In this document: positions 1,928-25,555 of the stretch, one piece after another
How positions within the stretch are numbered: the first letter of the stretch is position 1
Layout of the letters: each line of letters begins with the position of its first letter
DNA from: Actinomycetota bacterium
GTDB lineage: Bacteria > Actinomycetota > UBA4738
DNA length: 27,350 nt
NCBI GenBank assembly: GCA_005885025.1
Contig: VAYC01000014.1
Span: 1 to 27,350, forward strand
Reading direction: 5' to 3'
Program-made: the position numbers and the translations under genes
The notes under the pieces: generated by a model
Database searches by the model: none
The model's input: only the letters and a program-made list of their open reading frames with translations
Told to the model about the DNA's origin: nothing

Positions 1928-4069
1928 ATGGCACAGGCGGCACGGGAAGCGGTGAAGGGAACCGGAGGGGCCGGCAAGGCCCTGGTGATCCGGGAATACC
2001 CGCTCGTCCGCACTCGGAACATCGGGATCATGGCCCACATCGACGCGGGCAAGACCACCACGACCGAGCGGATCCTCTACTACACGGGCAAGTCCTACAA
2101 GGTCGGAGAGGTCCACGAGGGCACCGCCCAGATGGACTGGATGGTTCAGGAGCGCGAGCGCGGCATCACCATCACCTCGGCGGCCACGACCTGCCTGTGG
2201 AAGGACCACTGGATCAACATCATCGACACCCCCGGCCACGTGGACTTCACGGTGGAGGTGGAGCGGTCGCTCCGAGTGCTCGACGGCGCGGTGGCGATCT
2301 TCGACGCGGTGGCGGGCGTGGAGCCCCAGAGCGAGACCGTGTGGCGGCAGGCCGACCGCTATCACGTCCCCAGGATCTGCTTCGTGAACAAGATGGACCG
2401 GGTGGGGGCGGACTTCGAGCGGACCGTCCAGATGATCGAAGAGCGTCTGCACGCCACCCCCCTGGTGATCCAGCTCCCCTGGGGCGTGGAGTCCTCCTTC
2501 ATCGGAGTGATCGACCTCATCGAGATGAAGGGTCTGCGGTGGGCGGAAGGGATGGGCGAGTCTTGGGAGACGGTAGAGATCCCCGAGGAGCTCCGGGCGA
2601 AGGCCGAGGAATGGAGGCACCGGCTGTTCGAGCGCCTCGCGGACCACGACCCCGAGCTGATGGAGAAGTACGTCCACGGGGGAGAGCCGACGTCCGAGGA
2701 GCTGCGGCGCGCCCTTCGCAAGGCCACGCTCGAGGTGACGGGGACCCCCGTGCTGTGCGGCTCAGCTTTCAAGAACAAGGCCATCCAGCCGCTGCTGGAC
2801 GCCGTCGTGGCGTTGCTCCCCTCGCCGGTCGACGTGCCGCCCGTGCGCGGGGTCGACCCGGAGACCGGTGAGGAGGCCATTCGAGAGGCCAGCGACGAAG
2901 AGCCTTTCTCGGCCCTCGCGTTCAAGATCATGTCCGACCCCTTCGTGGGCCGGCTCACCTACATCCGCGTGTACTCGGGGATCCTCCGGACGGGCGCCCA
3001 CATCCAGAACTCCACAAGGGACCGGAAGGAGCGGATCGGCCGGATCCTCCAGATGCACGCCAACCACCGGGAGGACATGGAGGCCGCGTTCACCGGGGAT
3101 ATCGTGGCGGTAGTCGGGCTCAAGCACACCACCACGGGCGATACGCTGTGCGACCCAGCCAACCCCATCGTCCTCGAGTCGATGCAGTTCCCAACCCCGG
3201 TGGTGTCCGTGGCCATCGAGCCGAAGACCAAGGCCGATCAGGACAAGCTGTCCAGCGCGCTGGGCCGGCTGGCCGACGAGGACCCCACGTTCGTGGTGAA
3301 GGTCAACGACGAGACCGGCCAGACGTTGATATCGGGCATGGGGGAGCTGCACCTCGAGGTGCTCGTCGACCGCCTGACCCGCGAATTCAACGTGGGTGCC
3401 AACGTCGGAAAGCCTCAGGTGGCATACCGGGAGACGATCCGCAAGGCCCTCCACAAGGTCGAAGCCAAGTACATCCGCCAAACCGGCGGTCGCGGGCAGT
3501 ACGGCCACGTGGTCATCGACCTGGAGCCGCTCGGATCGGGCGGCGGCTACGAGTTCGTCAACAAGATCGTGGGCGGGACCATCCCCAGGGAGTACATCCC
3601 GTCGGTCGACCAGGGCATCCAGGAAGCGATGGAGTCCGGCGTGGTGGCCGGATACCCGATGGTCGACATCCGGGCCACACTGATCGACGGGTCCTACCAC
3701 GAGGTGGACTCCTCGGAGATCGCCTTCAAGATCGCAGGGCAGATGGCGTTCCGCGAAGGCGCCCGGAGAGGCGACCCGGTCCTGCTCGAGCCGGTCATGG
3801 AGTTCGAGATCCTCACCCCGGAGGAGTTCATGGGTGACGTCATGGGCGACGTGACGTCCCGCCGGGGCCGGATCGAGCACATCGACGAGCGGTCCGGGAT
3901 GCGGGTGATCCGCGTGGTTGTCCCACTGGCTGAGCTGTTCGGCTATGCCACCGACCTGCGGTCCAGAACTCAGGGCCGAGCTTCACACACGCCCATGCAG
4001 CTGCATGCCTACCAGGAGGTCCCGGCCCAGATCTCGCGGGAGATCGTGGCCCGAGTCCGAGGGGAGTAG
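1928..4069 (+). CDS. fusA: Elongation factor G (start at ATG 1928 or GTG 1985)
   Basis: [40 protein letters not shown] and [13 protein letters not shown]. Start uncertain: 1928 has GAGGA upstream, while 1985 matches the usual EF-G N-terminus. Confidence 0.98.
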
Positions 4070-4104
4070 ATCGGGGCTGGGAGCCCCGGAAGGAGTAATC
4101 GGAG

Positions 4105-5295
4105 ATGGCCAAGAAGAAGTTCGAGAGGACCAAGCCGCACGTCAATATCGGGACGATCGGCCACATCGACCACGGCAAGACCACGCTGACCGCGGCCATC
4201 ACCAAGGTGCTGTCGGAGAAGGTGGGTGGGATCAACAACTACATCCCATTCGATCAGATCGACAAGGCGCCGGAAGAGCGCGAGCGTGGGATCACCATCC
4301 AGATCTTCCACGCGGAGTACGAGACCGCGAAGCGGCACTACGCCCACGTGGACTGTCCGGGGCACGCCGACTACATCAAGAACATGATCACCGGAGCCGC
4401 CCAGATGGACGGGGCCATCCTGGTGGTCTCGGCGGCCGACGGGCCCATGCCCCAGACGCGGGAGCACGTCCTCCTGGCCCGCCAGGTGAACGTGCCCTAC
4501 ATCGTCGTGGCCCTGAACAAGGTGGACATGGTCGACGACCCCGAGCTCCTCGACCTGGTCGAGCTGGAGGTCCGTGAGCTCCTGTCCTCCTACGAGTTCC
4601 CCGGCGAGGAGGTCCCGGTGATCCGGCTCTCCGCGCTGAAGGCGCTGGAGGGTGACGAGCAGGCCAAGGCCCAGGTCATGGAGCTCATGGACGCCGTCGA
4701 CAACTCGATCCCCGAGCCCGTGAGAGACGTCGACAAGCCGTTCCTCATGCCGATCGAGGACGTCTTCTCGATCACCGGCCGCGGCACCGTGGTCACCGGC
4801 AGGGTGGAGCGCGGCGGCCTGAAGAAGATGGAGGAGATCGAGATCGTCGGCATCAAGCCCACCAAGAAGACGGTGGCCACCGACCTGGAAATGTTCCGCA
4901 AGCTCCTGGACGACGTCCAGGCCGGCGACAACGTCGGTGTGCTGCTGCGGGGCATCGACAAGGACGACGTGGAACGGGGACAGGTCCTGGCCAAGCCGGG
5001 CACGATCACCCCGCACACCGAGTTCGACACCCAGGTCTACGTGCTGTCGAAGGAAGAGGGCGGGCGGCATACGCCGTTCTTCCCCGGCTACCGGCCGCAG
5101 TTCTACTTCCGGACGACCGACGTGACCGGGGCCATCACGCTCCCCGAGGGTACGGAGATGATCATGCCGGGTGACAACACCACCATGAAGGTTGAGCTGA
5201 TCGCTCCAATTGCGATGGAGGAAGGTCTCAGGTTCGCCATCCGCGAGGGGGGCCGCACCGTCGGCGCCGGAAGGGTCGTGAAGATCCTGAAATGA
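4105..5295 (+). CDS. tuf: Elongation factor Tu
   Basis: [24 protein letters not shown] and [10 protein letters not shown]; GAAGGAG SD upstream. Confidence 0.99.
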
Positions 5296-5537
5296 GCTGC
5301 TACACGCGCCACCTGGGGGACTGGCTCCCGCCGGACCCGACCTGGCTCGACCGGAGAGCCCTGGACGAGGCCCTCCGGGAAGAGCTCGGCATGGCCGACG
5401 CCGACTGCCCCGAGGTCTGGTCCGCCGTGAAAACGAATCGTGACCGCCTCGCGATAGCCCTGAAGCGAGGGGGCTTGCGAAGGGGGACCACCCCAGAGCC
5501 GGCCGAGCACCGGGACGAGCAGGACGGTGCGCGCTGA
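5292..5537 (+). CDS. Uncharacterised 81-aa protein (MSCYxRH...CPxVW) between tuf and rpsJ
   Basis: ATGA overlap with the tuf stop and TGATG overlap with the rpsJ start. Almost all of the first 46 codons end in G/C. It fills the entire tuf-rpsJ gap. Confidence 0.8.
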
Positions 5538-5845
5538 TGGCCGCACCGCGGATTCGCATCAAGCTGCGTGGCTACGACCACGAGATCCTCGACGCCGCGG
5601 CGCGTGACATCGTCGATCACGTCACTCGGACGGGGGCCAAGGTCGTGGGGCCCGTCCCGCTTCCCACCGAGCGCAACCTGTGGACGGTCATCCGGTCGCC
5701 TCACAAAGACAAGGACAGCCGGGAGCACTTCCAGATGCTCACGCACAAACGCCTCATCGACATCTTGGACGCCACTTCCAAGACGGTGCAGGAGCTCCAG
5801 CGCCTGAACTTGTCGGCAGGCGTCGACATCGAGATCAAGCTCTGA
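5537..5845 (+). CDS. rpsJ: 30S ribosomal protein S10
   Basis: [26 protein letters not shown] and THKRLIDI. Confidence 0.99.
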
Positions 5846-5855
5846 CGGGGGATCG

Positions 5856-6518
5856 ATGGGCACCGCGAAGGGGATCCTGGGGACGAAGCTCGGGATGACG
5901 CAGATCTACACGGACGACTCAAGGGTGGTCCCGGTGACGGTCATCCAGGCCGGGCCTTGTCTGGTGACCCAGGTGAAGACCAAGGAGCGGGACGGTTACG
6001 AGGCCGTCCAGCTCGCCTACGCGGAGGCCCGCCGCGGCAAGGCCAACCGACCGGCAGCGGGGCACTTCCAGGCGGCCGGGGTCAAGCCGATGCGGCACCT
6101 CGTGGAACTCCGGACGAGCGAGGCCGGCGAGTACTCCCCCGGACAGCAGATCACCGTGGACATCTTCCAGCCCGGCGACCGGACCGATGTGATCGGCGTG
6201 TCAAAGGGCAAGGGATTCGCCGGACCGATGAAGCGACACGGCTTCAGCGGGATGGGCGGTTCGCACGGCACCGAGCGCAAGCACCGCTCCCCCGGATCCA
6301 TCGGGGCATCGGCCACGCCCTCCCGCGTGTTCCGGGGGGCCAGGATGGCCGGCCAGATGGGCAACGAGCGTGTCACCGTGCTCAACCTCGAGGTGGTGGA
6401 ATCAGATCCAGAGCGGAACCTGCTCCTGCTGAGGGGTGCGGTCCCCGGCCCCACCGGGGGTCTGGTGATGGTTCGCTCGAGCGTCAAAGCGGGCGAAGCG
6501 GGACGGAGGCACCACTGA
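5856..6518 (+). CDS. rplC: 50S ribosomal protein L3
   Basis: [23 protein letters not shown] and RMAGQMG. Confidence 0.99.
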
Positions 6519-7183: not shown

Positions 7184-7473
7184 AGAGCCCCCGCGACATC
7201 GTCTTTCGGCCGGTCGTCTCGGAGAAGTCCTACGGGGGGATCGAGCGCAACGCCTACACGTTCCTGGTGTCACCCGAGGCCAACAAGACCGAGATCAAGG
7301 AGGCAGTCCAGCAGATCTGGAACGTCCGGGTCCTGGAGGTCCGCACGATGAATCGCAAGGGGAAGCTGAAGCGGACCCGCCTGGGCCTCGGCAAGCGGCC
7401 GGACGTCAAGCGGGCCACGGTGACCCTCGCCCCGGGGGACACCATCGAGATCTTCGAGACCAAGGGGCCCTAG
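7180..7473 (+). CDS. rplW: 50S ribosomal protein L23
   Basis: [18 protein letters not shown] and KRATVTL; ATGA overlap with rplD. Confidence 0.98.
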
Positions 7474-8301
7474 ATGGCCGTTCGCAAGTACAAGCCGAGC
7501 ACGCCGGGCCGCCGTGGAGCCAGCGTCTCCGACTTCGGGGAGGTGACCAAGGGGTCTCCGGAGAAGTCGTTGACCCGCCCGTCTCCGAAGCGGGCGGGCC
7601 GGAACGCCTACGGCCGCGTCACCGCACGCCACCAGGGCGGAGGCCACAAGCGCCAGTACCGCGTGATCGACTTCCGGCGGGACAAAGACGGCGTGCCGGC
7701 GAAGGTCGCCACCATCGAGTACGACCCGAACCGGACCGCGCGCATCGCCCTCCTTCACTATTCGGACGGGGAGAAGCGCTACATCCTGGCCCCCCAGGGC
7801 ATGTCGGTGGGGGACCGGTTGATGTCGGGATCGAGTGCGGACGTCCGCCCTGGCAACGCCCTGCCTCTTGCCAGCATCCCGGTCGGGACCCTGGTCCACG
7901 CCGTGGAGCTCAGGCCCGGAGCCGGCGCGAAGATGGCCCGGTCGGCGGGCGTGGGCGTGCAGGTCCTGGCCAAGGAGGCGGGGTCGGCCACCCTGCGAAT
8001 GCCCTCGGGCGAGATCCGCATGGTCGACGCCAGGTGCAGGGCCACCGTCGGCGAGGTGGGGAACCCCGAACGTGAACTCGTATCCTTGGGGAAGGCCGGC
8101 CGGAACCGCTGGCTGGGCGTCCGCCCGTCCGTTCGAGGCGTGGCCATGAACCCGGTGGACCACCCGCTCGGCGGCGGCGAGGGGAAGTCCAGCGGCGGCC
8201 GCAATCCCACCAGTCCGTGGGGGAAGAAGGAAGGCCGGACCCGAAAGCCCAAGCCGTCCGACAAGCTCATCGTGCGCCGCCGCGGGAAGAGGAGGAGCTG
8301 A
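7474..8301 (+). CDS. rplB: 50S ribosomal protein L2
   Basis: [27 protein letters not shown] and [18 protein letters not shown]. Confidence 0.99.
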
Positions 8302-8308
8302 ACCAGCC

Positions 8309-8593
8309 ATGCCGCGTTCCGTGAAGAAAGGGCCCTTCGTCGACGATCACCTGATGTCCAGGGTGCTCGAGATGAACCGACGGGGCGACAAGCGGGTCAT
8401 CAAGACATGGTCACGCCGATCCACGGTCGTCCCGGAGATGGTGGGGCACACCATCGCCGTGCACGATGGGAAGAAGCACGTACCGGTGTTCGTGACCGAA
8501 TCGATGGTTGGGCACAAGCTCGGAGAGTTCGCCATGACCCGGATCTTCCGGACCCACGGGCACCACACCGAGCGGAGCACCTCGCTGAAGTAG
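8309..8593 (+). CDS. rpsS: 30S ribosomal protein S19
   Basis: [20 protein letters not shown] and MVGHKLGEF. Confidence 0.99.
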
Positions 8594-8600
8594 GAGAGGG

Positions 8601-8960
8601 ATGGAAGCCAAGGCCAGCTCGAAATACATCCGGATCTCGCCGAGGAAGATGCGGCGCTCGGTGGACCTCATCCGCGGGGTGCGCGTGGACGACGCTCGCC
8701 GGATCCTGACGCTGTCGCCCCTTCGGGCGAATCGGACACTGGTGAAGGTCCTGGAGTCCGCGGTCGCCAACGCGGAGCAGCGGCAGGCCATCCCGGAGAA
8801 CCTCATGGTCGCGAGAGCGTGGGTGGACGAGGGACCGACGATCAAGCGCTGGCAGCCCCGGGCCTACGGGCGGGCGAACAGGATCCGAAAGCGCACCAGC
8901 CACGTAACCGTGGTGGTGCAGAGCTTGGAGGAGGAGGTGACCGGTGGGGCACAAGGTTAA
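8601..8960 (+). CDS. rplV: 50S ribosomal protein L22
   Basis: [22 protein letters not shown] and RIRKRTSH. Confidence 0.98.
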
Positions 8961-9897
8961 CCCCTACGGATTTCGGCTCGGCGTGATCTACCCCTGGAAG
9001 TCCAAGTGGTACGCGCGTAAGGACTACGCCCAGGCGCTCCTCGAAGACGTCAAGGTCCGCCGGTACATCACCTCGAAGCTGACCCGAGCCGGCATCTCCA
9101 ACGTCGACATCGAGCGCAAGGGCGACCAGGTCCAGGTGTTCATCCGGACGGCTCGTCCCGGCATCGTCATCGGCCGGAAGGGCGCCGAGGTCGACCGCAT
9201 CCGCAAAGACATCGAGAAGCTGACCGGCAAGCGGGTCGACGTGAAGGTCGAGGACATGAACCAGGCGGCCAGCGAGCTCCGGCCGGAGACCGACGCGGCC
9301 CTGCTATCCCAAAGCGTGGCGGAACAGCTGGTGGGCCGGGTGTCGTTCCGGCGAGCCATGCGCCGGGCCGTCCAGACCGCCATGAAGGCCGGTGCCCTCG
9401 GCGTGCGGGTGCAGTGCGCCGGTCGGCTGGGCGGGGCGGAGATGTCCCGCCGCGAGTGGTATCGGGAGGGGCGCGTGCCCCTGCACACCCTGCGGGCAAA
9501 GATCGACTACGGCACGGCCGAGGCCAAGACGACGTTCGGCGTGATCGGAGTGAAGGTGTGGGTGTACCACGGAGACCAGATCCCCGCGCAGGAGCAGGAG
9601 ATCGAGCGAGCCCGGGCCAGGGCCCTGGCGGGCGTCCCGGTCGGTCGGTCAGGCGCTGCTTCGACCGGAGCTCTCATCACCGACGTCCGGGAGGTCGACG
9701 AAGGCGTGCCCGTGCCTCCGGCCGAAGTGCCGGAGACCCGCGAGGAACCCGGGCGTCCGGGCGGGGCCCGTCCTCAGGGGGCCCGTCCCCAGGGAGGCCG
9801 CCCCACGGGAGGCCGCCCGGTGGGGGCCAAGGCGCCGCGTCGAACGAGCGGGCGCCCCCCGGGAGGGGTCAAGCGAACCGGAGGGGGCAGGACCTGA
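8944..9897 (+). CDS. rpsC: 30S ribosomal protein S3 with long low-complexity C-terminal tail
   Basis: [32 protein letters not shown] and [10 protein letters not shown]; GTG start after GGAGG. Confidence 0.98.
9763..9822 (+). repeat. Four imperfect 15-nt tandem repeats in the rpsC tail
   Basis: GGGGCCCGTCCTCAG / GGGGCCCGTCCCCAG / GGAGGCCGCCCCACG / GGAGGCCGCCCGGTG, encoding [20 protein letters not shown]. Confidence 0.85.
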
Positions 9898-10313
9898 TGC
9901 TCTCGCCCAAGCGGGTCAAGCACCGCAAGCAGCACCGAGGCCGCATGAGAGGACAGGCCAAAGGGGGGTCGGACGTTCACTTCGGTGACTACGGCCTGCT
10001 GGCGCTGGAGCCTGGTTGGATCACCAACCGGCAGATCGAGGCGGCCCGGGTGGCCATGACCCGGCACATCAAGCGCGGCGGGAAGGTCTGGATCAACATC
10101 TTCCCGGACAAGCCCTTCACCAAGAAGCCGGCCGAGACTCGGATGGGTTCAGGCAAGGGCAATCCGGAAGGGTGGGTGGCCGTGGTCAAGCCCGGTAGGG
10201 TGATGTTCGAGCTCTCCGGGGTCGCCGAACCGGTCGCTCGGGAAGCCATGGACCGGGCCGCTCACAAGCTTCCCATCAGATCCAAGTTCATCGTCCGGGC
10301 AGGCGCCGAATGA
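9897..10313 (+). CDS. rplP: 50S ribosomal protein L16
   Basis: [26 protein letters not shown] and RMGSGKG. Start at the TGATG overlap (9897), not 9414. Confidence 0.98.
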
Positions 10314-10678
10314 AAGCGACTGAGCTTCGCGAGCTACCCGACGAGGAGCTCCTAGCCCGTCTGGAGGCCAACAAGGAGGAGCTGTTCAACTTGCGGTTCC
10401 AATCGGTCACCGGGCAGCTCGACAACCCGATGCGGATCAAGCAGGTCCGCCACGACATCGCCAGGATCCTGGGGGTGCTCCGGGGGCGGCAGACGGAAGA
10501 GGAGCTCATGGCCGCGGTGGCGGCCGCCGACCGACAGTCGCTCGAGGAGCGCAGGGATGCCATCGCCTCCGGCGAGCTGAAGGGTCGGGCGCTTGGCGAG
10601 ATCGCCGATGAACAGGTCATCGAGCAGGAGGCCGCGGCAGGGGCCGAGGGCCTGCCCGAGGAGGAGGAAGGCGAATGA
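10310..10678 (+). CDS. rpmC: 50S ribosomal protein L29 with about 60-aa acidic C-terminal extension
   Basis: [13 protein letters not shown] and [11 protein letters not shown] core; sits between rplP and rpsQ with ATGA overlaps. Confidence 0.96.
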
Positions 10679-10938
10679 CCGAGTCGGTCCGGACCCAGCG
10701 CAAGGTACGGACGGGAGTGGTCGTGTCCGATGCCATGGCAAAGACCGTCGTGGTTCGCATCTCGAGCCAGGTTCGCCACCCGCTGTACGGCAAGATCGTC
10801 CGGCGCTCCACCAGGCTCAAGGCGCACGATGAATCGTTCGGCGCGGCGGTGGGCGACACCGTGCGGATCATGGAGACCCGTCCGCTCTCGAAGACCAAGC
10901 GATGGCGCGTGGTCGAGGTGGTGGAGAAGGCCAAGTGA
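10675..10938 (+). CDS. rpsQ: 30S ribosomal protein S17
   Basis: [17 protein letters not shown] and [11 protein letters not shown]. Confidence 0.98.
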
Positions 10939-11303
10939 TCCAGACGGAGAGCCGGTGCCGAGTGGCGGACAACACGGGGGCCAAAGAGGTCCTGGTGATC
11001 CGGGTGCTGGGCGGCTCGGGGCGCCGATACGCCGGCGTGGGCGACATCGTCGTGGGTTCGGTGAAGGACGCGCTCCCCGGCGGTGGGGTGAAGAAGGGCG
11101 AGGTGGTGCAAGGAGTCGTCGTGCGAACGGCCAAGGAACGCCGTCGGTCGGACGGTTCGTACATCAAGTTCGACGACAACGCTGTTGTACTGATCAACGA
11201 ACAGAAGAACCCACGGGGCACCCGGATCTTCGGTCCGGTGGCGAGAGAGCTCCGGGAGAAGAGATTCATGAAGATCATCTCGCTGGCTCCCGAGGTGCTG
11301 TGA
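10935..11303 (+). CDS. rplN: 50S ribosomal protein L14
   Basis: [28 protein letters not shown] and ISLAPEVL; GTGA overlap start at 10935. Confidence 0.99.
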
Positions 11304-11325
11304 GGACTGGCAGGAGACGAGGCTG

Positions 11326-11649
11326 ATGCGGACGGTTGATATCAAGAAGAACGACGAGGTAGAGGTGATCGCCGGCAAGGACCGCGGCAAGCGCGGCCGG
11401 GTGGTCAACGTCCTGCCTCGAGAGAACCGGGTCATGGTGGAGGGTGTGGCCCGGGCCAAGCGTCACCTCCCCATCCGCCCCACGTCTCGCGGAGGCCAGA
11501 CCGGCGGCATCATCCTGAAGGAACAGTTCATCGACCTCTCGAACGTCATGGTGGTCTGCAAGTCCTGCGGGAAGGCCACGCGGATCGGGCACCGTGAGGA
11601 TTCTGGGATCAAGGTACGGGTCTGCCGGCGTTGTGAGGCGGAGATCTGA
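11326..11649 (+). CDS. rplX: 50S ribosomal protein L24 (two CxxC motifs)
   Basis: KOW motif [11 protein letters not shown] and LSNVMVV; CKSC and CRRC. Confidence 0.98.
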
Positions 11650-11650
11650 C

Positions 11651-12283
11651 ATGGCCGAGAAGGAAGCCCCCATTGCACGCCCCGAGCAAGCACGCCCGGG
11701 ACCGACCGCCCCGGCCCCACGGCTCAAGGAGCGGTACATGCATGAGGTGCTGCCCACCCTGATGCGGGAGCTCGAGATCGACAACCCCATGCGGGCTCCG
11801 CGCCTGGAGAAGATCGTGGTGAACATGGGGGTGGGTGAAGCGATCCGCGACGCCAAGCTCCTGGAGGCAGCCGCCGCGGACCTGGCCACCATCAGCGGAC
11901 AGAAGCCGGCCATCACCAAGGCGCGGAAGTCGATCGCCAACTTCAAGCTTCGGGCCGGGATGTCCATCGGGGCGAAGGTGACGCTTCGCGGCAGCCGGAT
12001 GTGGGAGTTCCTCGACCGCCTGCTGTCGACGGCTCTTCCGAGGATCCGTGACTTCCGCGGGCTGAACCCGGACGCCTTCGACGGAAGCGGCAATTACTCG
12101 ATCGGGGTCACGGAACAGCTGATCTTCCCGGAGATCGACTACGACAAGGTCGTGAAGGTCCGGGGCATGGACATCACCATCGTGACGACCGCCCGCGACG
12201 ACGATGAGGCCCGAGCAATGCTGCGGGCCCTGGGGTTTCCGTTCGCTGGGCAGTCGGCCGTTGCGGCTGCGGCGGCGAGCTGA
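11651..12283 (+). CDS. rplE: 50S ribosomal protein L5
   Basis: [29 protein letters not shown] and GMDITIVT. Confidence 0.98.
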
Positions 12284-12301
12284 GGGAGGGAAGAGGAGCG
12301 A

Positions 12302-12490
12302 ATGGCCAAGAAAGCATTGATCGAGAAGCAGAAGCGGGCTGGCCGGAAGTTCAGGGTCCGGGCCTATACGCGATGCGCCCGCTGCGGGAGGCCGCGCGCC
12401 GTACTCCAGCGCTTCACCCTGTGCCGCATATGTTTCCGGCAGCTCTCGCATCAGGGCGAGGTGCCCGGCGTGACCAAGGCGTCGTGGTGA
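12302..12490 (+). CDS. rpsZ: 30S ribosomal protein S14 type Z (zinc-binding)
   Basis: CARC...CRICFR and GVTKASW; 62-aa short form (also called rpsN). Confidence 0.97.
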
Positions 12491-12502
12491 GGTGATGAGA
12501 AC

Positions 12503-12901
12503 GTGGTCATGACCGATCCCATCGCCGACCTCCTCACCCGGATCCGCAACGCCGGCATGGCCCGGAAGGACGACGTGATCCTGCCGAGCTCTTCGCTCAA
12601 GGAACGCATCGCCGAGATCCTGGCCTCGGAAGGGTACGTCGCCGGCGCGTCGGCCGAAGGGGAAGGAAAGGGCCGAACGCTGACCATCCGGCTGAAGTAC
12701 GGAGATGCCCGAGAACCTTCGATCACCGGCCTTCAGCGGATCTCCAAGCCGGGCCAGCGCGTTTACGCCGGCAAGGGAGAGGTTCCCAGAGTCTTGGGCG
12801 GCCTCGGAATCGCTATCCTGTCCACCTCTCAAGGCATCCTCACCGACCGCCAGGCTCGCAAGCTCGGCGTGGGCGGCGAGGTCCTTGCCTACGTGTGGTG
12901 A
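12503..12901 (+). CDS. rpsH: 30S ribosomal protein S8
   Basis: [23 protein letters not shown] and GGEVLAYVW. Confidence 0.99.
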
Positions 12902-12919
12902 CGAAAGGCACGAGTATCC

Positions 12920-13468
12920 ATGTCCCGGATCGGTAAACAGCCCATCGCCATCCCCAGGGGGGTGGAGGTCTCCGTTGACGGGGCTCGCGTCGCGGTGAAG
13001 GGACCGCGCGGGTCGCTCGAACAGTCCTTCCACCGGGACATGCGGATCGTCCAGGCCGACGGCACCCTCCGGGTGGAGCGGCCCAGCGAGGAGCGCGAGC
13101 ATCGCTCGCTGCACGGTCTGACTCGGACGCTGCTCGCCAACATGGTTGAGGGCGTCACCAACGGGTTCGAGAAACGGCTGGAGATCGTGGGCGTCGGGTA
13201 TCGGGCCGCTCTCCGGGGGAAGGATCTCGAGCTGGCTCTTGGGTTCTCTCACCCGGTGACGGTCCCGGCACCTGCGGGCATCGAGTTCGAAGTCCCTGCC
13301 GTCAACCGCATCGTGGTGCGCGGCATCGACAAGCAGCTCGTCGGCGAGGTGGCCGCGGAGATCCGCCAGATCCGAAAGCCCGAGCCGTACAAAGGCAAGG
13401 GCGTACGGTACGAGGGTGAATACGTTCGCAAGAAGGCCGGCAAGGCTGCGAAGGCGGTGACGGCGTGA
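12920..13468 (+). CDS. rplF: 50S ribosomal protein L6
   Basis: [16 protein letters not shown] and [13 protein letters not shown]. Confidence 0.99.
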
Positions 13469-13815
13469 TGCGTGCGGAGGCCAAGCGCGAGGCGCGGATG
13501 CGCCGCCACAGCCGCGTGCGGCGCAAGGTGCGGGGCACCGCCGAGCGCCCCCGCCTGGCCGTGTACCGCTCGAACCGGCACATCTACGCCCAGCTCGTCG
13601 ACGATCTGTCGGCTCGCACGCTCATGGCGACCTCCGATCTCGGCGCGGCCGACGGCAACAAGACCGCTCGAGCCAAGAGTGTGGGTCAGGCCATCGCGGA
13701 GCGGGCGCGCTCCATGGGAGTCGAGCAGGTCGTGTTCGATCGCGGTGGCCGGCTGTTCCACGGCCGGGTCAAGGCGCTCGCCGACGCGGCGCGAGAAGCC
13801 GGGCTCTCGATCTGA
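13468..13815 (+). CDS. rplR: 50S ribosomal protein L18
   Basis: [22 protein letters not shown] and [13 protein letters not shown]; start at ATG 13468 or GTG 13465. Confidence 0.98.
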
Positions 13816-13840
13816 CGAGCATCAGGAGAAGAGGGAAGAC

Positions 13841-14437
13841 ATGAGGCGGTTCGACAACCAGGCCGAGAAGAGTCCCTTCGAGGAGCGGGTGGTGGCCATC
13901 AACCGCGTGGCCAAGGTCGTCCGAGGTGGCCGGCGGTTCAGCTTCACTGCCCTGGTCGTGGTTGGGGACGGAGCCGGTCGCGTGGGCGTGGGCTACGGCA
14001 AGGCCAAGGAGGTGCCGGCCGCCATCCAGAAGGGTGTGGAGGTGGCCAAGAAGAGCATGTTCACGGTCCCGCTCATGAACACCACCATCCCTCATGAGGT
14101 GGTGGGCGAGGACGGCGCGGGCATCGTCATGCTGAAGCCGGCCGCTCCGGGGACCGGCGTCATCGCCGGCGGCCCCGTGCGGGCCGTGGTGGAGGCCGCC
14201 GGGATCAAGGACATCCTGTCCAAGTCACTCGGGTCGGGCAATCCCATCAACATCGTCCACGCGGCCATCGCCGGGCTCCGCCGGCTCAGGCGGCCGGAGG
14301 AGATCGCCCGCTTGCGCGGCCGCGATGTCTCGGAGATCGCTCCGCGGCCGATGGTGGAAGGTGTGGCCGACGCCGAAGTGGCCATGGCCGCCAAACGGGC
14401 CCAGTCCGGCCTGGAGGTGGACGGTGCCGAAGCTTAG
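13841..14437 (+). CDS. rpsE: 30S ribosomal protein S5
   Basis: [24 protein letters not shown] and [12 protein letters not shown]; ATG 13841 after a purine-rich SD. Confidence 0.98.
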
Positions 14438-14618
14438 GGTCACCCAGATCCGTTCGGTCATCGACCGACCGAAGGATCAAAAGGCGACGATCCGCAGGCT
14501 CGGGCTGCTCCGGATCCGCCACTCCGTGGTCAAGGAGGACCGCCCGGACATCCGCGGGATGATCGCCAAGGTCGCCCACCTGGTGAGCGTCGAGAATGTC
14601 GAGGGAGAGGCCCCATGA
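14424..14618 (+). CDS. rpmD: 50S ribosomal protein L30
   Basis: [12 protein letters not shown]...LGL...[12 protein letters not shown]; GTG at 14424 after GGAGG; sits between rpsE and rplO. Confidence 0.95.
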
Positions 14619-15058
14619 AGGTCCACCACCTGCGCCCTGCCGAGGGATCCGTTCGCCCTCGGCGCCGGCTGGGTCGAGGCAAGGCCGCTGGCCAGGGAAA
14701 GACGGCCGGCCGAGGCACCAAGGGCTACGGAGCCCGCCACAACCCCAAGCCCGGCTTCGAGGGCGGCCAGATGCCGCTCCAGCGCCGGGTTCCCAAACTG
14801 AAGGGGTTCACCAACCCCAACCGAGTGGCGTGGACCGTGGTGAACGTGGGGAGCCTGGCCGATGCCTTCGAGCGGGGCACGGAGGTCACGCCCGAGCTGC
14901 TCCGGGGCCGAGGCATGGCCCGGAAGGGCGCCCCGGTGAAGGTCCTTGGGGAAGGCCAGCTGGACAAGGCCCTGACCGTCCGGGTGCACGCGGTCTCGGC
15001 CTCCGCCAAGAGCAAGATCGAGCAGGCAGGAGGCTCCGTAGAGGTCCTCAGCCTGTAA
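14615..15058 (+). CDS. rplO: 50S ribosomal protein L15
   Basis: RLGRG, GKTAGRGTKG, FEGGQMPLQRRVPK and KIEQAGG. Confidence 0.99.
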   Translation: MKVHHLRPAEGSVRPRRRLGRGKAAGQGKTAGRGTKGYGARHNPKPGFEGGQMPLQRRVPKLKGFTNPNRVAWTVVNVGSLADAFERGTEVTPELLRGRGMARKGAPVKVLGEGQLDKALTVRVHAVSASAKSKIEQAGGSVEVLSL

Positions 15059-15101
15059 ACTGAGGTTCTCGGACGACCGCCTTTCGAGGAACCGCCGAAC
15101 G

Positions 15102-16391
15102 ATGCTGAAAGCCTTCGTCAACTCGTTCAAGATCCCGGATCTTCGCAAGAAGATCCTGTTCACCATCGGCATCATCGCGGTGTTCCGGCTGGGGTCCCAC
15201 ATCCCGGTCCCCAACGTGGATCCCAGCCGACTGGCTGAGCTTCGAAGCGCGACCACGGGTCAGCAGCTCTCTGCGCTGCAATTCATCGACCTCTTCTCGG
15301 GCGGGGCGCTCACCAGGTTCGCAGTGTTCTCGCTCGGGATCATGCCCTACATCACCAGCTCGATCATCATGCAGCTCCTCACAGTGGTGATCCCCAAGCT
15401 CGAGCAATGGCAGAAGCAGGGCGAGATCGGCATCAAGAAGATCACCCAATGGACCCGCTACATGACCGTGACCCTGGCGCTGCTCCAATCGACAGGCCTG
15501 GTTTTCCTGTTCAACAGCTCGCAGTTCACGGGCGGCGCAACAGGCATCGTCCGGCACTTCACGCCTCCGCGGGTGGCCCTCATGGTCATCACGCTCACCG
15601 CCGGCACGGCCATGATCATGTGGCTGGGCGAGCTGATCACCCAGCGGGGGATCGGCAACGGGATGTCGATCCTGATCTTCACCAGCGTCATCTCCCGCCT
15701 GCCCGCGCAGGGAACCGGCATCCTGCACCAGGCCGGCGAGGCCAAGTTCTACTTCCTGCTCCTGCTCGGGATCGCCATCATCGTGGCGGTGGTGTGGATG
15801 GAGCAGGGCCAGCGGCGCATCCCCGTGCAGTACGCGAAGCGAATCGTTGGGCGGCGGATGACTCAGGGCGGGTCCACCTACATCCCGCTGAAGGTGAACC
15901 AGGCCGGAGTCATCCCGATCATCTTCGCCTCCTCGGTCCTGTACTTCCCGACGCTGCTCCAGAACGTGATCCACGTGCAGTGGTTCCAGAACTTCGTGAA
16001 CAACGACCTGCTTCGGCAGTCCAGCTTCATCTACATGTTCATCTATGGGACGCTGGTCGTGTTCTTCGCCTACTTCTACGCGGCCATCTCCTTCAATCCG
16101 CTCGACACCGCCGACAACATCCGGAAGTACGGAGGCTTCATCCCGGGGATCCGACCCGGGAGACCCACGGCCGACTACCTTTCCAATGTCCTGAACCGCA
16201 TCACGTTGCCGGGCTCATTGTTCCTCGCGGCGATCGCCCTGATCCCTTCGATCTTCCTGGCTTACTGGCAGATCACGGCCTTTCCCTTCGGCGGGACCAC
16301 CATCTTGATCACCGTCGGCGTGGCGCTGGAGACCATGAAGCAGCTCGAGTCGCAGCTCATGATGCGGCACTACGAGGGCTTCCTCCGCTAG
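15102..16391 (+). CDS. secY: Preprotein translocase subunit SecY
   Basis: FSLGIMPYITSSII, WLGELITQRGIGNG.S, IPGIRPG and GGTTILI. Confidence 0.99.
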   Translation: MLKAFVNSFKIPDLRKKILFTIGIIAVFRLGSHIPVPNVDPSRLAELRSATTGQQLSALQFIDLFSGGALTRFAVFSLGIMPYITSSIIMQLLTVVIPKLEQWQKQGEIGIKKITQWTRYMTVTLALLQSTGLVFLFNSSQFTGGATGIVRHFTPPRVALMVITLTAGTAMIMWLGELITQRGIGNGMSILIFTSVISRLPAQGTGILHQAGEAKFYFLLLLGIAIIVAVVWMEQGQRRIPVQYAKRIVGRRMTQGGSTYIPLKVNQAGVIPIIFASSVLYFPTLLQNVIHVQWFQNFVNNDLLRQSSFIYMFIYGTLVVFFAYFYAAISFNPLDTADNIRKYGGFIPGIRPGRPTADYLSNVLNRITLPGSLFLAAIALIPSIFLAYWQITAFPFGGTTILITVGVALETMKQLESQLMMRHYEGFLR

Positions 16392-16400
16392 AGGCTCCCC

Positions 16401-17045
16401 ATGCGCCTGGTGCTGCTGGGGCCCCCCGGGGCGGGCAAGGGAACCCAGGCACGGCACCTGGTCGAACGGTTCGGCGCCCCGCTGATCGCCACGGGCGACA
16501 TCTTTCGGTCGAACGTCGCCGAGGGCACCGAGCTCGGCCGACTGGCCAAGGCATACCTCGACGCCGGCGAGCTGGTTCCCGACGAGGTGACCATCGGAAT
16601 GGTGATGCAGGCCATCGATCAGGCCCCCGGCGGGTTCGTCCTGGACGGCTTCCCGCGCAACATCCGGCAGGCGGAGGCGCTGGAGGCAGAGCTTGGGGCC
16701 CGGAACGCGCCATTGTCGGCTGCGTTGGCCTTCCTCGTGGACGAGGAGACCGCTGTGAAGCGCATCGCCGGCCGCCGTACCTGTGCCGACTGCCAGCGTC
16801 CCTACAACGTCTTCTTCGACCCGCCGCGAGCGGAGGGCGTGTGCGACGCGTGCGGTGGGCCACTCCTGCAGAGGACCGACGAGGACGAGCCGACGGTCCG
16901 TCGTCGCCTGGAGGTCTATCGGGAGAGCACCGCGCCTCTCCTCAAGTTCTATTCGGACCGGGGACTGCTCAGGGAGGTCGACGCCGAGGGGACCGAGGCA
17001 GAGGTCACCGAGCGCGTCCTGTCCGCCTTGGCGGACCTGGCTTAG
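16401..17045 (+). CDS. adk: Adenylate kinase with zinc-binding lid
   Basis: GPPGAGKGTQA, LDGFPR and a C-x2-C-x16-C-x2-C lid (16782-16853). Confidence 0.98.
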   Translation: MRLVLLGPPGAGKGTQARHLVERFGAPLIATGDIFRSNVAEGTELGRLAKAYLDAGELVPDEVTIGMVMQAIDQAPGGFVLDGFPRNIRQAEALEAELGARNAPLSAALAFLVDEETAVKRIAGRRTCADCQRPYNVFFDPPRAEGVCDACGGPLLQRTDEDEPTVRRRLEVYRESTAPLLKFYSDRGLLREVDAEGTEAEVTERVLSALADLA

Positions 17046-17058
17046 AGTCGGTGAGACC

Positions 17059-17820
17059 ATGATCATCTTCAAGTCGCCCGAAGAGATAGGCCGGATGCGC
17101 CAGGCCGGGCGTGTCGTCGCGACGACCATCGACCAGCTTCTGGCCGCGGTCCGCCCCGGCCTCACCACCGAGGACCTGGACCGCCTGGCGGAAGAGTTCA
17201 TCCGCGACCAGGGGGCGGTGCCGTCCTTCAAGGGTTACCGAGGTTTCCCCGGGACGATCTGCACCTCGCTCAACCACGAGGTCGTGCACGGAATCCCCAG
17301 TCCCACACGCGCGCTCATTCCTGGCGACGTGCTGAAGCTCGACGTGGGGGCGGTGTGGGACGGCTACCATGCGGACTCGGCCGTCAGCGTGTTCGTGGCC
17401 GGGGCCCCTTCCGAGGAAGCCGAGAAGCTCGTCCGGGCTACGGAGGAGTCACTGGAGGCTGGGATCGCCGCTCTCCGATCGGGGGCCAGGCTGTCGGACG
17501 TCGGCCACGCCGTCCAGCAGGTTGCGGAGGGAGCGGGCTTCAGCTGCGTCCGCGAATACGCCGGCCACGGCGTGGGGCGGGCGCTGCACGAAGACCCTCA
17601 AGTCCCCAACTACGGGGACCCTGGCAGGGGGCCGGTCGTCAAGCCGGGGCTGGTCGTGGCCATCGAGCCGATGGTGAATGTGGGCACGTGGCGAACCCGG
17701 GTGCTGCGTGACCATTGGACGGTGGTCACGGCTGACGGCAGTCTCTCCGCGCATTTCGAACATACCATCGCCGTGACCGAGGACGGGACGGAGGTCCTGA
17801 CGGCTCGTCCGGCGGCCTGA
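17059..17820 (+). CDS. map: Type I methionine aminopeptidase
   Basis: MIIFKS, NHEVVHGIP, DGYHADSA, GHGVG..LHEDP, IEPM and SAHFEHT; start at ATG 17059. Confidence 0.98.
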   Translation: MIIFKSPEEIGRMRQAGRVVATTIDQLLAAVRPGLTTEDLDRLAEEFIRDQGAVPSFKGYRGFPGTICTSLNHEVVHGIPSPTRALIPGDVLKLDVGAVWDGYHADSAVSVFVAGAPSEEAEKLVRATEESLEAGIAALRSGARLSDVGHAVQQVAEGAGFSCVREYAGHGVGRALHEDPQVPNYGDPGRGPVVKPGLVVAIEPMVNVGTWRTRVLRDHWTVVTADGSLSAHFEHTIAVTEDGTEVLTARPAA

Positions 17821-17841
17821 TCGCCCGGCAGGGCAGCGCGC

Positions 17842-19701
17842 TTACGCGGTTCGGAGCGCCGGCCTTCCCGCCGGGACCCAGAATTCCACGGTGGTTCCCC
17901 CTTCGGAGAGGCTTCGGACCTCGCACCTTCCGCCCGCCATCTCCGCCCGCTCTCGCATCGACGTGAGCCCGAGGTGGCCGTCCGTGGACCGCAGCATCTC
18001 GGATGCGCTGATGCCGACGCCATTGTCCTGCACCCGAACGAGGAACCCGCCGTCCCGATCCTCCAGCCGAACCTCGACGCTGGTGGCCTTGGCGTGCTTG
18101 CGGACGTTGATGAGGGCTTCCTGGGCGATGCGATAGAGCGTTACGCGGGTCTCGTCCGATGGTTCACGTCGGAGCCGGCTGTCGACACGAAAATCCATGC
18201 CGGAATCGAGTTCTTTCGCATACTCGACGATGGCGGCGGCGAGTCCCTCCTCGTCGAGGGCCGACGGCCGGAGCTCGAAGATGAGCGTCCTCATGACATC
18301 GACCGCGCTCTGTATCCTTCCCACCGCTTGATCCAGGGACTCCGCGGCGGCTTTGGGATCGAGTGTGTCAAGCCGTCGCCGCAGCATCTCGAGCTGCATC
18401 CCGACCCCGACCATGAGCTGGACGGGGCCGTCGTGCACCTCGCGAGCGATGCGGTGCCTCTCTTCCTCCTCGGCGTTGACCAAGCGAGACAGCAGCCTTC
18501 GCCGCTGCCCGTCCACCACGCGGAGGTCTTCCAGGCTCTCCCTCAGCTCCTGGGTCCGCTTCTGGGCGAACATCTGCATTTCCAGAGCTCGGATCTCCTC
18601 CACCTGCTGCTGGATTTCCTCCAGCAGCCAAGCGTTGTGCAGGGCAAGCGCGGCATGACCAGCGCACTGCTCTACCAAGGTGACGATCCACCGCTTCATG
18701 TTGTCGCCCCTCCCGGGGAACTCCAGGACCAGGATCCCGAGCCGGGAGCCCTTCTCCAGGAAGAGGGGAACGATCAGCAGGTTCCTGGCCCCGGGGAGCA
18801 GCGTGTCCAGGCGCTGATCGGCCTGAGGGTCGAGTCCCCGCACGAGCTGGGTCTGGCGAGAGTTCCAGGCCAGCTCCATCACGTGGTCGAGGCCCTCCCG
18901 GATCTGTCCCGGCGATGCCGAGCCGCGATACGCCATGAGGGAAAGCGCTTCCACTCTTGGAGGCGAGGCCAGGACGGCTCCTCTGGTGAAGCCGAAGACC
19001 TCGGAGAGCCTCGTCAGCAGGGTCACCGGGATCTCCGAGGCCGAGCTGCGCTGGTCGATCTCCGACACGATCCCGGATACTCGCTCGAGGTCGAGCTTGT
19101 GGGTCCGCACCTCGCGCTCGCTGAGGGCGGAGCACGTGGCCGTGCCCAGGGCCACGGCCCAGAGCGCGGCGACGTTCAGCATCGAAACGAGGCGGAAGTT
19201 GTCTCCCCGGCCCGGCAGGGCGGAGAGGATCGTCTCTCGAACCTGCAGGATCCCCGCGCTCTGAGCGTAGAACGCAACGAACAGGAGGATTGAATGCCAC
19301 GCCGCGATCTTCAGGCCGGTGCGATAGGAGGCCAGCAGCGTGACCGCGACCACGTGCACGAACACGAGGAACCGGAGCGGGCTCTGGGCGCCGCCCGTCG
19401 CGTAGCTCACCCACGCCAGGTAGATGCCGTCCACGAGCAACGTCCCGCCGATCACGGGAAGCAGTTGGACCCGCCGCAGACGGCGGGTCAGCTCCGGAAC
19501 CGGGACGAGCAGCAGGTAGGCCCCCGTGGCCGCGCCCACGGCCAGCAGCGAGACGCCTCGGACCTCCGGAGCCAGGGTGCAGACGACGAGAACCACCGAG
19601 GCGAAGCCGATCCGCAGGACGCGCAGGTATTCCATGCGCTCGGCGATGGAGACGAGATCGCCGAAGGTTGGTCTCGCTCTCGAAGGAGCCGACAGGGTCA
19701 C
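17842..19701 (-). CDS. Membrane sensor histidine kinase: multi-TM N-terminus (PilS-like), GAF, HisKA_3 and HATPase
   Basis: H-box EERHRIAREVHDG, N-box EALINVRKHA, DNGVG, GHLGLTSMRER and GGTTV. GAF-like segment ending LLIVPL...LGILVL...AALALHNA. About 5-6 hydrophobic helices at the N-terminus. Confidence 0.92.
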   Translation of the reverse strand: MTLSAPSRARPTFGDLVSIAERMEYLRVLRIGFASVVLVVCTLAPEVRGVSLLAVGAATGAYLLLVPVPELTRRLRRVQLLPVIGGTLLVDGIYLAWVSYATGGAQSPLRFLVFVHVVAVTLLASYRTGLKIAAWHSILLFVAFYAQSAGILQVRETILSALPGRGDNFRLVSMLNVAALWAVALGTATCSALSEREVRTHKLDLERVSGIVSEIDQRSSASEIPVTLLTRLSEVFGFTRGAVLASPPRVEALSLMAYRGSASPGQIREGLDHVMELAWNSRQTQLVRGLDPQADQRLDTLLPGARNLLIVPLFLEKGSRLGILVLEFPGRGDNMKRWIVTLVEQCAGHAALALHNAWLLEEIQQQVEEIRALEMQMFAQKRTQELRESLEDLRVVDGQRRRLLSRLVNAEEEERHRIAREVHDGPVQLMVGVGMQLEMLRRRLDTLDPKAAAESLDQAVGRIQSAVDVMRTLIFELRPSALDEEGLAAAIVEYAKELDSGMDFRVDSRLRREPSDETRVTLYRIAQEALINVRKHAKATSVEVRLEDRDGGFLVRVQDNGVGISASEMLRSTDGHLGLTSMRERAEMAGGRCEVRSLSEGGTTVEFWVPAGRPALRTA

Positions 19702-19702
19702 G

Positions 19703-20335
19703 TCAGGCGAACTTGCGGACGTCCGGCGCGATGGGAGCTGATGCCAACTTGGGGTCCCGGCGGTCGAGTCGGTTCTGCACCATCAGGAACGCGACGACCA
19801 CGAGGGCCAGGGCGAGGGGGAAGGCCACCTGCTTGCCGGCTTCAGCGGCCGCCCCTCCGATCCGGCCGAAGAGGCTCGGCCCATCCGTGGTCCTCTCCGT
19901 GACCGGCCGAGACGAAGCGGGTGCCTGAGTGGAGGCTCCCGTGGTGGTGTCGCGGTTCAGTCCGCCGACCCCTGCAGATGTGGAGGTCGTTGCCGGCCGG
20001 CCGCTCGGAACGGTACCGCCCCCTCCCCGGTGACCGCCGCCGCCGGTAGGTGTTGGGGTTGGCGTTGGGGAAACGATCGGCTTGAGGATTCCGTCGACCA
20101 CATCGGTTGCCTGCTTGACTGCCGCGTCAGCCTTGTCCTTCACGCTGTTGGCGGTGTCGGTGGCGGTCTGCTTCGTTTGGTCGACATTGCAGGTGGGATC
20201 GGTGAGTGGACATTCGGCCAAAGCCACGGGGGCGGACACGGTCAAGCACACTCCGATGAACGCCATGATGACCAGTGATTTCCGAGCCGACTGGCGCGGT
20301 GAGAGCCTATTGCCCCTGAGTCCCTTGCCGTGCAT
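19703..20335 (-). CDS. Secreted, C-terminally membrane-anchored Pro/Thr/Gly-rich protein with DRRDPKL tail (210 aa)
   Basis: ATG at 20335 preceded by GGAGGAGG. Signal peptide ending VALA, CPLTDPTC, PTPTPTPT/GGGG linker, C-terminal TM (FPLALALVVVAFLMV), then QNRLDRRDPKLA. Stop lies 1 nt from the kinase start. Confidence 0.85.
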   Translation of the reverse strand: MHGKGLRGNRLSPRQSARKSLVIMAFIGVCLTVSAPVALAECPLTDPTCNVDQTKQTATDTANSVKDKADAAVKQATDVVDGILKPIVSPTPTPTPTGGGGHRGGGGTVPSGRPATTSTSAGVGGLNRDTTTGASTQAPASSRPVTERTTDGPSLFGRIGGAAAEAGKQVAFPLALALVVVAFLMVQNRLDRRDPKLASAPIAPDVRKFA

Positions 20336-20660
20336 CTGACGACCTCCTCCCGACCCCGATCGCCGATCTACAGCAACACCTAGAACCTGGTATCGACGTC
20401 CCTTCGGATCTGGCGTATCGGCCGTCCCGAGGATGTTGTCCCGCGCTCCCGATGATCCCAAAGTCTGCGAACGGCGTAGCTCGGATCGGTGGCACGCTGC
20501 GTCAGTGGGGGAGACCGCCCCTTCCGGTCGGTGGAGCCTCGCCACGGCGCGGACGGGCCTTCACGGCCGCTTCAGCCACCCGCCAGCTGCGCCGATGCCC
20601 CAATGGCCGGTCCCTGCGGGGCCGGCGCGGGCAGTCAGTGACCGCCAGGAAGGGCCCGAC

Positions 20661-25537: not shown

Positions 25538-25555
25538 GCAGGCCTGAAGCCTGGC

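Follow-up and report, generated by a model that had tools for sequence, protein, structure and literature searches.

A predicted Cys/His/Cys micro-protein of an unnamed family, encoded from the tuf stop codon in an uncultured soil Actinomycetota order

RESULTS AND DISCUSSION

A small gene overlapping both tuf and rpsJ

The window analyzed here, a 27,350-nt stretch of an Actinomycetota genome (G000), carries a small gene, hereafter X, that takes up the whole space between the genes for EF-Tu and ribosomal protein S10 and overlaps both of them. The features, in order along the window, are as follows.

4105..5295, plus strand: tuf (EF-Tu, 396 aa), the sole tuf of the window's genome; the product has one cysteine, Cys84, within HVDCPGH
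5292..5295, plus strand: ATGA overlap, in which the X ATG (5292-5294) overlaps the tuf TGA (5293-5295)
5292..5537, plus strand: small gene X (81 aa, P0001), belonging to an unnamed protein family
5292..5468, plus strand: conserved helical domain of X, residues 1-59, with model helices at 3-11, 18-32, 39-48 and 50-59
5298-5300, 5310-5312 and 5406-5408, plus strand: codons of Cys3, His7 and Cys39 of X
5469..5534, plus strand: disordered, lineage-specific tail of X, residues 60-81 (pLDDT 48-60), which differs among relatives
5535..5539, plus strand: TGATG overlap, in which the X stop TGA (5535-5537) and the rpsJ ATG (5537-5539) have one base (A) in common
5537..5845, plus strand: rpsJ (S10, 102 aa), which opens the S10 cluster

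An earlier note on this DNA had described an open reading frame joined to tuf by ATGA and to rpsJ by TGATG, with a strong third-position GC bias. Both junctions were found at these positions, and the GC content of X by codon position is 0.72/0.55/0.87; the third-position value is 0.87 over the whole gene and 0.94 over codons 1-48, compared with 0.93 in tuf and 0.87 in rpsJ. The surrounding genes are tightly packed, with gaps from rpsL to rplC of 12, -7, 35, -4, -1 and 10 nt. No well-spaced Shine-Dalgarno (SD) sequence precedes the X ATG, the nearest candidate (GGAAGGG) ending about 18 nt before it. An ATGA or GTGA junction between tuf and X recurs in relatives, and TGATG likewise links X to rpmG in a sister family.

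X is read in the -1 frame relative to tuf, which raised the possibility that -1 frameshifting yields a fused EF-Tu-X protein. This was rejected, as no slippery heptamer of the X_XXY_YYZ type was seen before the tuf stop, and the single EF-Tu-X "fusion" in the databases (P0049) looks like a frameshifted assembly.

Evidence for a protein-coding gene

Because the window has a GC content of 67% and dozens of spurious frames of about 81 codons appear in its ORF listing, the case for a gene is made by conservation and not by ORF length. A word-indexed search returned 23 close homologues of 63-101 aa, all from Actinomycetota metagenome-assembled genomes (MAGs) or soil metagenomes, in which residues 1-47 are near-invariant and the tail is variable. 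Among twelve tuf-linked X orthologues, pairwise dN/dS over codons 2-48 (Nei-Gojobori) was mostly 0.12-0.35, with one pair at 0.47, at dS values from 0.3 to more than 2. The start codon is pinned by N-terminal identity to stand-alone homologues that bear AGGAGG sites. We conclude that positions 5292-5537 hold a true protein-coding gene on which purifying selection acts, the translation itself being a prediction. A lack of homologues, which the earlier note had named as grounds for abandoning the gene, is thus contradicted, and its proposed comparison of substitution rates across relatives came out in favor of selection on the protein. The only part of the tail kept among relatives is a terminal G-x-R, the codons of which overlap the rpsJ initiation region.

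An unnamed protein family

An exhaustive phmmer search with X matched 34 representatives at E<1e-3, with E-values of 1e-21 to 1e-4, and a profile search extended the family to at least 178 protein clusters with the pattern MSCYxRH...D...R...CPxVWxxVK. Wherever the source gives a name it is "hypothetical protein," and none of the members carries a Pfam domain. Conservation in an alignment of 146 sequences is concentrated in a few columns: C3 (139/143), Y4 (143/143), H7 (140/143), D25 (144/146), C39 (140/146), and W43 (146/146), with R6, R29, P40, and K47 as further hallmarks. X, whose N-terminus reads MSCYTRHL, has C3, Y4, R6, H7, D25, R29, C39, P40, V42, W43, and K47. It carries the N-terminal M-[ST]-C-Y-x-[RK]-H-[LM] over residues 1-8 (columns kept in 139-143 of 143 sequences), followed by D25, R29, and C39-P40-x-V42-W43-x-x-[VIL]-K47, and its length of 81 aa, the four helices of its core, and its significant similarity in sequence placed it with the 60-80 aa class. 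The three residues singled out in the earlier note, Cys3, His7, and Cys39, are indeed where it put them and are among the most conserved positions of the family. Four sequences have phenylalanine at position 3, and all four also lack C39; since they sit in one archaeal clade (C3F/C39A), the double loss is counted as one coupled event.

Named genomes with family members belong to Actinomycetota, Anaerolineae and other Chloroflexota, Hydrothermarchaeota, Aenigmatarchaeota, Thermodesulfobiota, and Coprothermobacterota, and the family also includes MAG proteins from Nitrolancea and structure-database members from Methanobacteriota. The family to which the earlier note likened X is therefore real, with members in archaea and Chloroflexota, whereas Bacillota, the third group it had mentioned, were not seen, although Coprothermobacterota and Thermodesulfobiota were. 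Literature searches with the N-terminal motif gave no match, and a search for a small protein between tuf and rpsJ gave nothing relevant. The family is rare, widely scattered, so far unnamed, and 60-80 aa in length. X shares with it the length class, the start, Y4/W43, and the near-invariant C3, H7, D25, C39, and P40; it differs in that the rest of the family consists of free-standing genes, each with an SD of its own, amid unrelated neighbors, whereas X and its order-level orthologues begin on the tuf stop. In the window's subclade, moreover, the usual C-terminal helix (EPAF..VRAAMREN type) is replaced by a longer disordered tail.

Transcription within the str-S10 cluster

Contigs (Logan) from four soil metatranscriptome libraries of three studies align to X with 1-2 mismatches, at 5251-5503, 5233-5502, 5277-5462, and 5394-5544, and the first two reach across the tuf/X junction by over 31 nt. 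To control for carried-over DNA, contigs of the same runs were placed on 7400-27350 at ≥98% identity; they fell on the ribosomal-protein genes up to about 17.0 kb, with almost none in the 10 kb of non-ribosomal genes beyond (17400-27350). These contigs fit transcription of the cluster, X included, but they cannot prove a single transcript.

No sigma-70-like promoter was found in 3800-6200, and the terminator-like sites in that interval amounted to one weak minus-strand hairpin, no more than in shuffled sequences. Neither a promoter-like nor a terminator-like site nor an Rfam leader was found between tuf and rpsJ, which together with the RNA contigs that bridge tuf into X bears out the earlier proposal that a separate S10 promoter or leader is missing here. 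A leader RNA of the S10 operon or another ribosomal-protein operon was likewise rejected, as no Rfam family reached its gathering score anywhere in the window and the stretch is coding. The combined evidence firmly supports X as a real accessory gene of the unnamed family that is expressed from inside the str-S10 transcription unit.

Predicted structure and comparison with known proteins

An AlphaFold2 model of X, built from a 47-sequence alignment, comprises four short helices (3-11, 18-32, 39-48, and 50-59), with pLDDT of 88-92 over residues 11-50 and disorder beyond residue 60, and it resembles models of other family members at TM 0.57-0.66. Cys3 and His7 are predicted to be separated by a single turn of helix 1, with Cys39 where helix 3 begins. 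The proximity of the three residues to one another is argued only from these helix positions and from the one coupled C3F/C39A clade.

The Foldseek comparison suggested in the earlier note was run with this model and gave no match in the PDB (E>=4); in the AFDB clusters and the ESM Atlas the model found nothing but uncharacterized proteins of its own family (Methanobacteriota, Chloroflexota, and Actinomycetota). An exhaustive VIA-align search reached a best Z of 4.0, which is no match for a small helical model, and Atlas feature searches gave no usable match. At the sequence level, Pfam and NCBIfam scans of X gave no match at E<=10, and the best E in a PDB sequence search with the family profile was 0.76. 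PADLOC gave no match and the best PHROG hit (E 0.11) is of unknown function, so X is not a defense or phage protein by these models. Scans of other family members brought up nothing meaningful either.

Several known classes were considered and set aside. A ribosomal protein or known translation factor is not indicated by any Pfam or NCBIfam model, and ribosome-bound entries reach a fold Z of only about 3. A zinc-ribbon or zinc-finger micro-protein would have two CxxC/CPxCG knuckles (four Cys/His ligands) on a beta-ribbon, whereas X has just two cysteines, spaced by 36 residues, lacks CxxC, and is modelled with helices only. A thioredoxin-fold redoxin of the glutaredoxin or mycoredoxin kind was rejected on the lack of CxxC, of beta-strands in the model, and of a Pfam match; a structural match of X to DsbA stands at E=4 and TM 0.23. 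A prediction of EF-Tu in complex with X(1-62), in which X was modelled without an alignment and had pLDDT of 36-39, counts neither way.

Attachment to tuf is confined to one order

Nearly every intact X within the window's order overlaps tuf by ATGA or GTGA; the exception is G095, with a 12-nt tuf-X gap, its own GGAGGA, and a TTG start. Two operon contexts were found. The window's family (f1) has a single tuf and the order fusA-tuf-X-rpsJ. A genus of the sister family (g20) has two tuf copies about 25 kb apart, with X behind the second copy and upstream of rpmG...secE. In one of these relatives (G027) both tuf genes agree at every one of their 1191 nt (100% identity), the identity ending exactly at the tuf stop, and we consider them homogenized by gene conversion and the X-linked EF-Tu not a specialized paralogue because of this identity. 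The rpmG locus of the window's own genome lacks both tuf and X, rpmG being preceded there by tRNA-Thr and tRNA-Met.

Outside the order, the genes of the family stand alone; good AGGAGG sites precede them, and their ATG or GTG is followed by TCN-TGC-TAC. In a 400-genome sample of the phylum, stand-alone copies occurred in 15 genomes outside the order, and 0/15 adjoined tuf; nor did any family member outside the order stand beside translation genes in the loci surveyed. The linkage anticipated in the earlier note therefore exists within the order, to tuf in two contexts and to rpsJ in one of them, and was not found beyond it: the attachment of X to the tuf 3' end is seen only in this uncultured soil Actinomycetota order. 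As far as the literature searched shows, this attachment at the stop codon of tuf, in two operon settings, is unreported.

No conserved target gene was found beside family members. PIG-L/LmbE deacetylases adjoin 7 of 33 loci (in two Chloroflexota clades), a cyclophilin gene lies downstream and overlaps in 4 of 33, and arsR-arsM accompany one paralogue from an actinobacterium. Further neighbors of stand-alone members include a divergent Metal_resist gene, PfkB, 3-hydroxyacyl-CoA dehydrogenase, and crotonase. The PIG-L enzyme family includes enzymes of low-molecular-weight-thiol biosynthesis, and these metal- and thiol-related neighbors in other phyla are weakly consistent with a thiol or metal role.

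Patchy distribution and decay

Strong matches to X were found in about 15 of the 201 genomes of a class-level sample. They are present in 4/15 members of family f1 besides the window's genome and in 8/10 of genus g20, and about 90% of the order's searched genomes have no match. Five f1 relatives with intact tuf-rpsJ and no X (G083 among them; the statement rests on the other four) have gaps of about 38-157 nt between the two genes, about 56 nt in a genome of the same genus (G171). The fused str-S10 layout, which the earlier note had put down to X, is thus not created by it, these relatives being equally compact without X.

Decay is frequent where X is present. One relative (G076) retains a 33-codon remnant between tuf and rpsJ, and in another (G012) X stops prematurely after V46. 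X is frameshifted and has C39R in G152. The tuf gene of G098 is cut to an in-frame 52-codon stub, followed by ATGA and a frameshifted X with C39R; G144 has lost tuf and keeps X as an open frame with C39R; and a second copy in G167 (G167b) also keeps an open frame with C39R. C39R arose at least two times, since G172, at 95% identity to G098, still has the cysteine. Conservation of the frame in relatives, on which the earlier note had staked the gene, thus holds for the tuf-linked orthologues, while the wider picture is one of patchiness and decayed copies. We regard X as dispensable and accessory because it is patchy (about 15/201 genomes) and often decaying.

Recent transfer of tuf together with X into the window's genome was considered, since G171 is without X and its EF-Tu is only 87% identical to that of the window; it was rejected because the two genomes show an even 79-85% DNA identity along the entire cluster, and tuf marks no break in it.

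What X may do

X is probably an accessory protein that may have a thiol or metal site formed by Cys3, His7, and Cys39, and we propose that it is made by translational coupling to EF-Tu. Ribosomes that end EF-Tu at UGA would reinitiate on the overlapping AUG of X; X would thereby be made at a constant ratio to EF-Tu and need neither a promoter nor a strong SD itself, and ribosomes ending X at UGAUG would move on to rpsJ. Expression of X at ribosomal-protein levels and a gating of S10-spc by its translation, both proposed in the earlier note, are conjectural. We infer such termination-reinitiation because both ends of X lie in overlap junctions and the SD-like GGAAGGG is about 18 nt off. In the protein, Cys3 and His7 on helix 1 and Cys39, which caps helix 3, may form a C3-C39 disulfide switch or a low-coordination metal site, as suggested by the single helical turn between Cys3 and His7, by the place of Cys39 at the start of helix 3, and by the F3 clade having lost both cysteines. 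This biochemistry, read from the conservation pattern, is put forward tentatively and holds somewhat less than half of our belief. On this view X would be a small protein of redox or metal handling, would owe constitutive high expression to its place behind tuf, and would not be a necessary component of translation. Two observations weigh against it: two cysteines and one histidine are an incomplete ligand set for a monomer, and the open-frame C39R copies (G144, G167b) suggest that Cys39 may not be indispensable. It also counts against this reading that a pure hitch-hiker on tuf would predict neither the exact tuf junction kept at two loci nor the degraded look of the copies without tuf.

It is also conceivable, though we think it unlikely, that X is a dedicated partner of EF-Tu or the ribosome, for example a thiol guard or reductant of Cys84 or a stress modulator of EF-Tu. 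Conservation of the ATGA/GTGA tuf junction both before rpsJ and before rpmG would be in line with such a role, but linkage at two loci can also come from recombination between gene-converting tuf copies. Where the adjacent tuf has been deleted (G144) or truncated (G098), X has C39R, with a frameshift in one of the two; however, X also decays beside an intact tuf (G152, G012, G076) and is missing from the large majority of the order's searched genomes, the same-genus genome included. EF-Tu here has one cysteine, at the conserved GTP-site position, and PIG-L deacetylases stand beside some Chloroflexota homologues. Oxidation of the GTP-site cysteine inactivates EF-Tu of cyanobacteria and chloroplasts (PMC10212517), and in Gram-positive bacteria the abundant Tuf is a conserved target of S-thiolation (PMC4360819). 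The X-linked tuf of G027, identical in DNA sequence to the str-operon tuf, argues against a specialized EF-Tu, and family members in other phyla and other Actinomycetota never adjoin tuf. The fuller form of this idea, an accessory factor made stoichiometrically from the tuf stop that binds EF-Tu and protects, re-reduces, or regulates Cys84, or senses metal or redox state and tunes elongation, is slightly less likely again.

We give an equally low likelihood to X being a small helical regulator that binds nucleic acid or protein, with structural cysteines and an incidental position behind tuf. The compact four-helix domain, its conserved basic residues (R6, R21/R22, R29, and K47), and an RGGLRRG segment in the window's lineage would suit such a role, yet no helix-turn-helix or other DNA- or RNA-binding fold was matched (VIA Z 4.0; Foldseek PDB E>=4), and conservation is highest at Cys, His, Tyr, and Trp, not over a basic surface. 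The varied neighbors in other lineages are in keeping with an incidental position, while no conserved target gene adjoins.

That the peptide is unimportant and the frame serves as a translational relay or spacer gating S10-spc, or as a non-coding leader, is very improbable and largely refuted: the overlaps with both neighboring cistrons and the retention of the terminal G-x-R codons over the rpsJ initiation region, but not of the remaining tail, would fit it, but codons 2-48 are under purifying selection at the amino-acid level, the same protein stands alone with its own SD in other phyla, relatives cope with a 38-157-nt non-coding tuf-rpsJ gap, and no Rfam leader, promoter, or terminator signal was found.

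Relation to known systems and significance

Returning to the reading of X as an accessory thiol- or metal-site protein, its expression has a textbook counterpart in termination-reinitiation at ATGA/TGATG overlapping cistrons of ribosomal-protein and other operons. The junction geometry is the same at both ends of X, which likewise has no separate well-placed SD; X differs in being a non-ribosomal accessory gene between the str and S10 clusters, and coupling is proposed here from geometry. Accessory genes wedged in ribosomal-protein operons are a known theme, ybaC of Bacillus subtilis, which sits between tufA and rpsJ, being one case. X resembles such genes in being patchy, small, Cys-containing, dispensable, and placed at a ribosomal-protein operon junction, whereas it differs from other wedged genes as one vertically inherited family with two cysteines that is fixed on the tuf stop and moves with tuf. 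The X family is without prior description, model, or recognizable fold.

The EF-Tu thiol oxidation and S-thiolation systems offer a further parallel, in that the vulnerable single GTP-site cysteine is Cys84 here and a co-expressed thiol protein could address it; they differ in that no dedicated small partner has been described there, and the link to X is conjecture. EF-Tu is among the most abundant and best-studied bacterial proteins, and to our knowledge few proteins dedicated to it are known. X is a testable candidate, as a conserved, transcribed Cys/His/Cys micro-protein that starts on the tuf stop in two operon settings. Even if the linkage serves expression only, X defines a small-protein family without a Pfam model, solved or recognizable fold, or annotation. 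Its hallmark residues are ready targets for mutagenesis and for metal and redox assays, and the relatives form a natural series (intact, C39R, frameshifted, remnant) for studying the loss of operon-embedded micro-genes.

A last comparison concerns the CsoR/RcnR-type metal or persulfide sensors (PF02583), with their Cys-His-Cys ligands, to which one family member had a chance-level Pfam match (E 0.033). Homology of X was rejected by profile-profile comparison (hhalign probability 0.3%, E 0.22). X is similarly small and all-helical, with a cysteine at a helix start and a Cys/His pair four residues apart, which is an analogy only; the order of its motif is reversed (C-x3-H and then C) and X is shorter. 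The window's genome has a separate bona fide CsoR-family gene elsewhere.

Second tuf copies and decay of the small-protein gene

In the sister-family genus g20, where the small-protein gene follows the second of two tuf copies and lies upstream of rpmG, the tuf pair of G027 is identical over 1191 nt (100%), with identity setting in 10 nt upstream of the start codon and ending at the stop. This block is a sharp gene-conversion tract, limited to the coding sequence.

Loci around tuf and rpmG
L097 = G027:C1:232500-236500: one tuf copy of G027
L098 = G027:C1:257000-261500: the other tuf copy of G027
L025 1450-1900 (G098:C6), - strand: tuf stub with the small-protein gene
L100 1265-1451 (G000:C188): rpmG preceded by tRNA-Thr(GGT) and tRNA-Met(CAT)

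The tuf at L025 in G098 is an in-frame stub of 52 codons, in which the first ~16 codons are fused to the last ~36, and the 3' end keeps the ATGA overlap with a small-protein gene that is itself frameshifted, with rpmG downstream. This stub is the relic of a second tuf copy that has been lost. The slot upstream of rpmG, which holds the second tuf and the small-protein gene in genus g20, is occupied by the two tRNAs in the genome of the window.

Replacement of Cys39 by Arg (TGC/TGT to CGC/CGT) is recurrent in genus g20, occurring in G144, G152, G098 and G167 (L022, L024, L025 and L038, respectively) with at least two independent origins, and Cys3 is unchanged in all of these copies. The replacement may be an initial step of decay or, alternatively, a functional shift.

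EF-Tu and the downstream part of the window

The EF-Tu of the window (4105-5295) has only one cysteine, Cys84 in the motif HVDCPGH, and shares only ~87% identity with that of a same-genus genome, compared with 99% for S10 of the same pair. The S10-spc genes end with adk and map at ~17.8 kb. In contrast to the ribosomal part, almost no near-identical metatranscriptome contigs covered positions 17400-27350. Large non-ribosomal ORFs, for example 20433-23588, occupy this region.

Neighbors of family members elsewhere

L023 1477-2865 (G175:C7), - strand: paralogue-type member of 64 aa with its upstream neighbors

Two genes lie immediately upstream of this member, one for an ArsR-like regulator and one resembling an arsenite methyltransferase gene, both assigned by eye from sequence. 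Chloroflexota members adjoin PIG-L/LmbE-type deacetylases (L049, L050, L051, L053, L054, L055 and L058). Members in Thermodesulfobiota, Coprothermobacterota and related MAGs overlap a secreted cyclophilin downstream (L056, L057, L059 and L066), with adenosine-kinase-like and NUDIX genes upstream.
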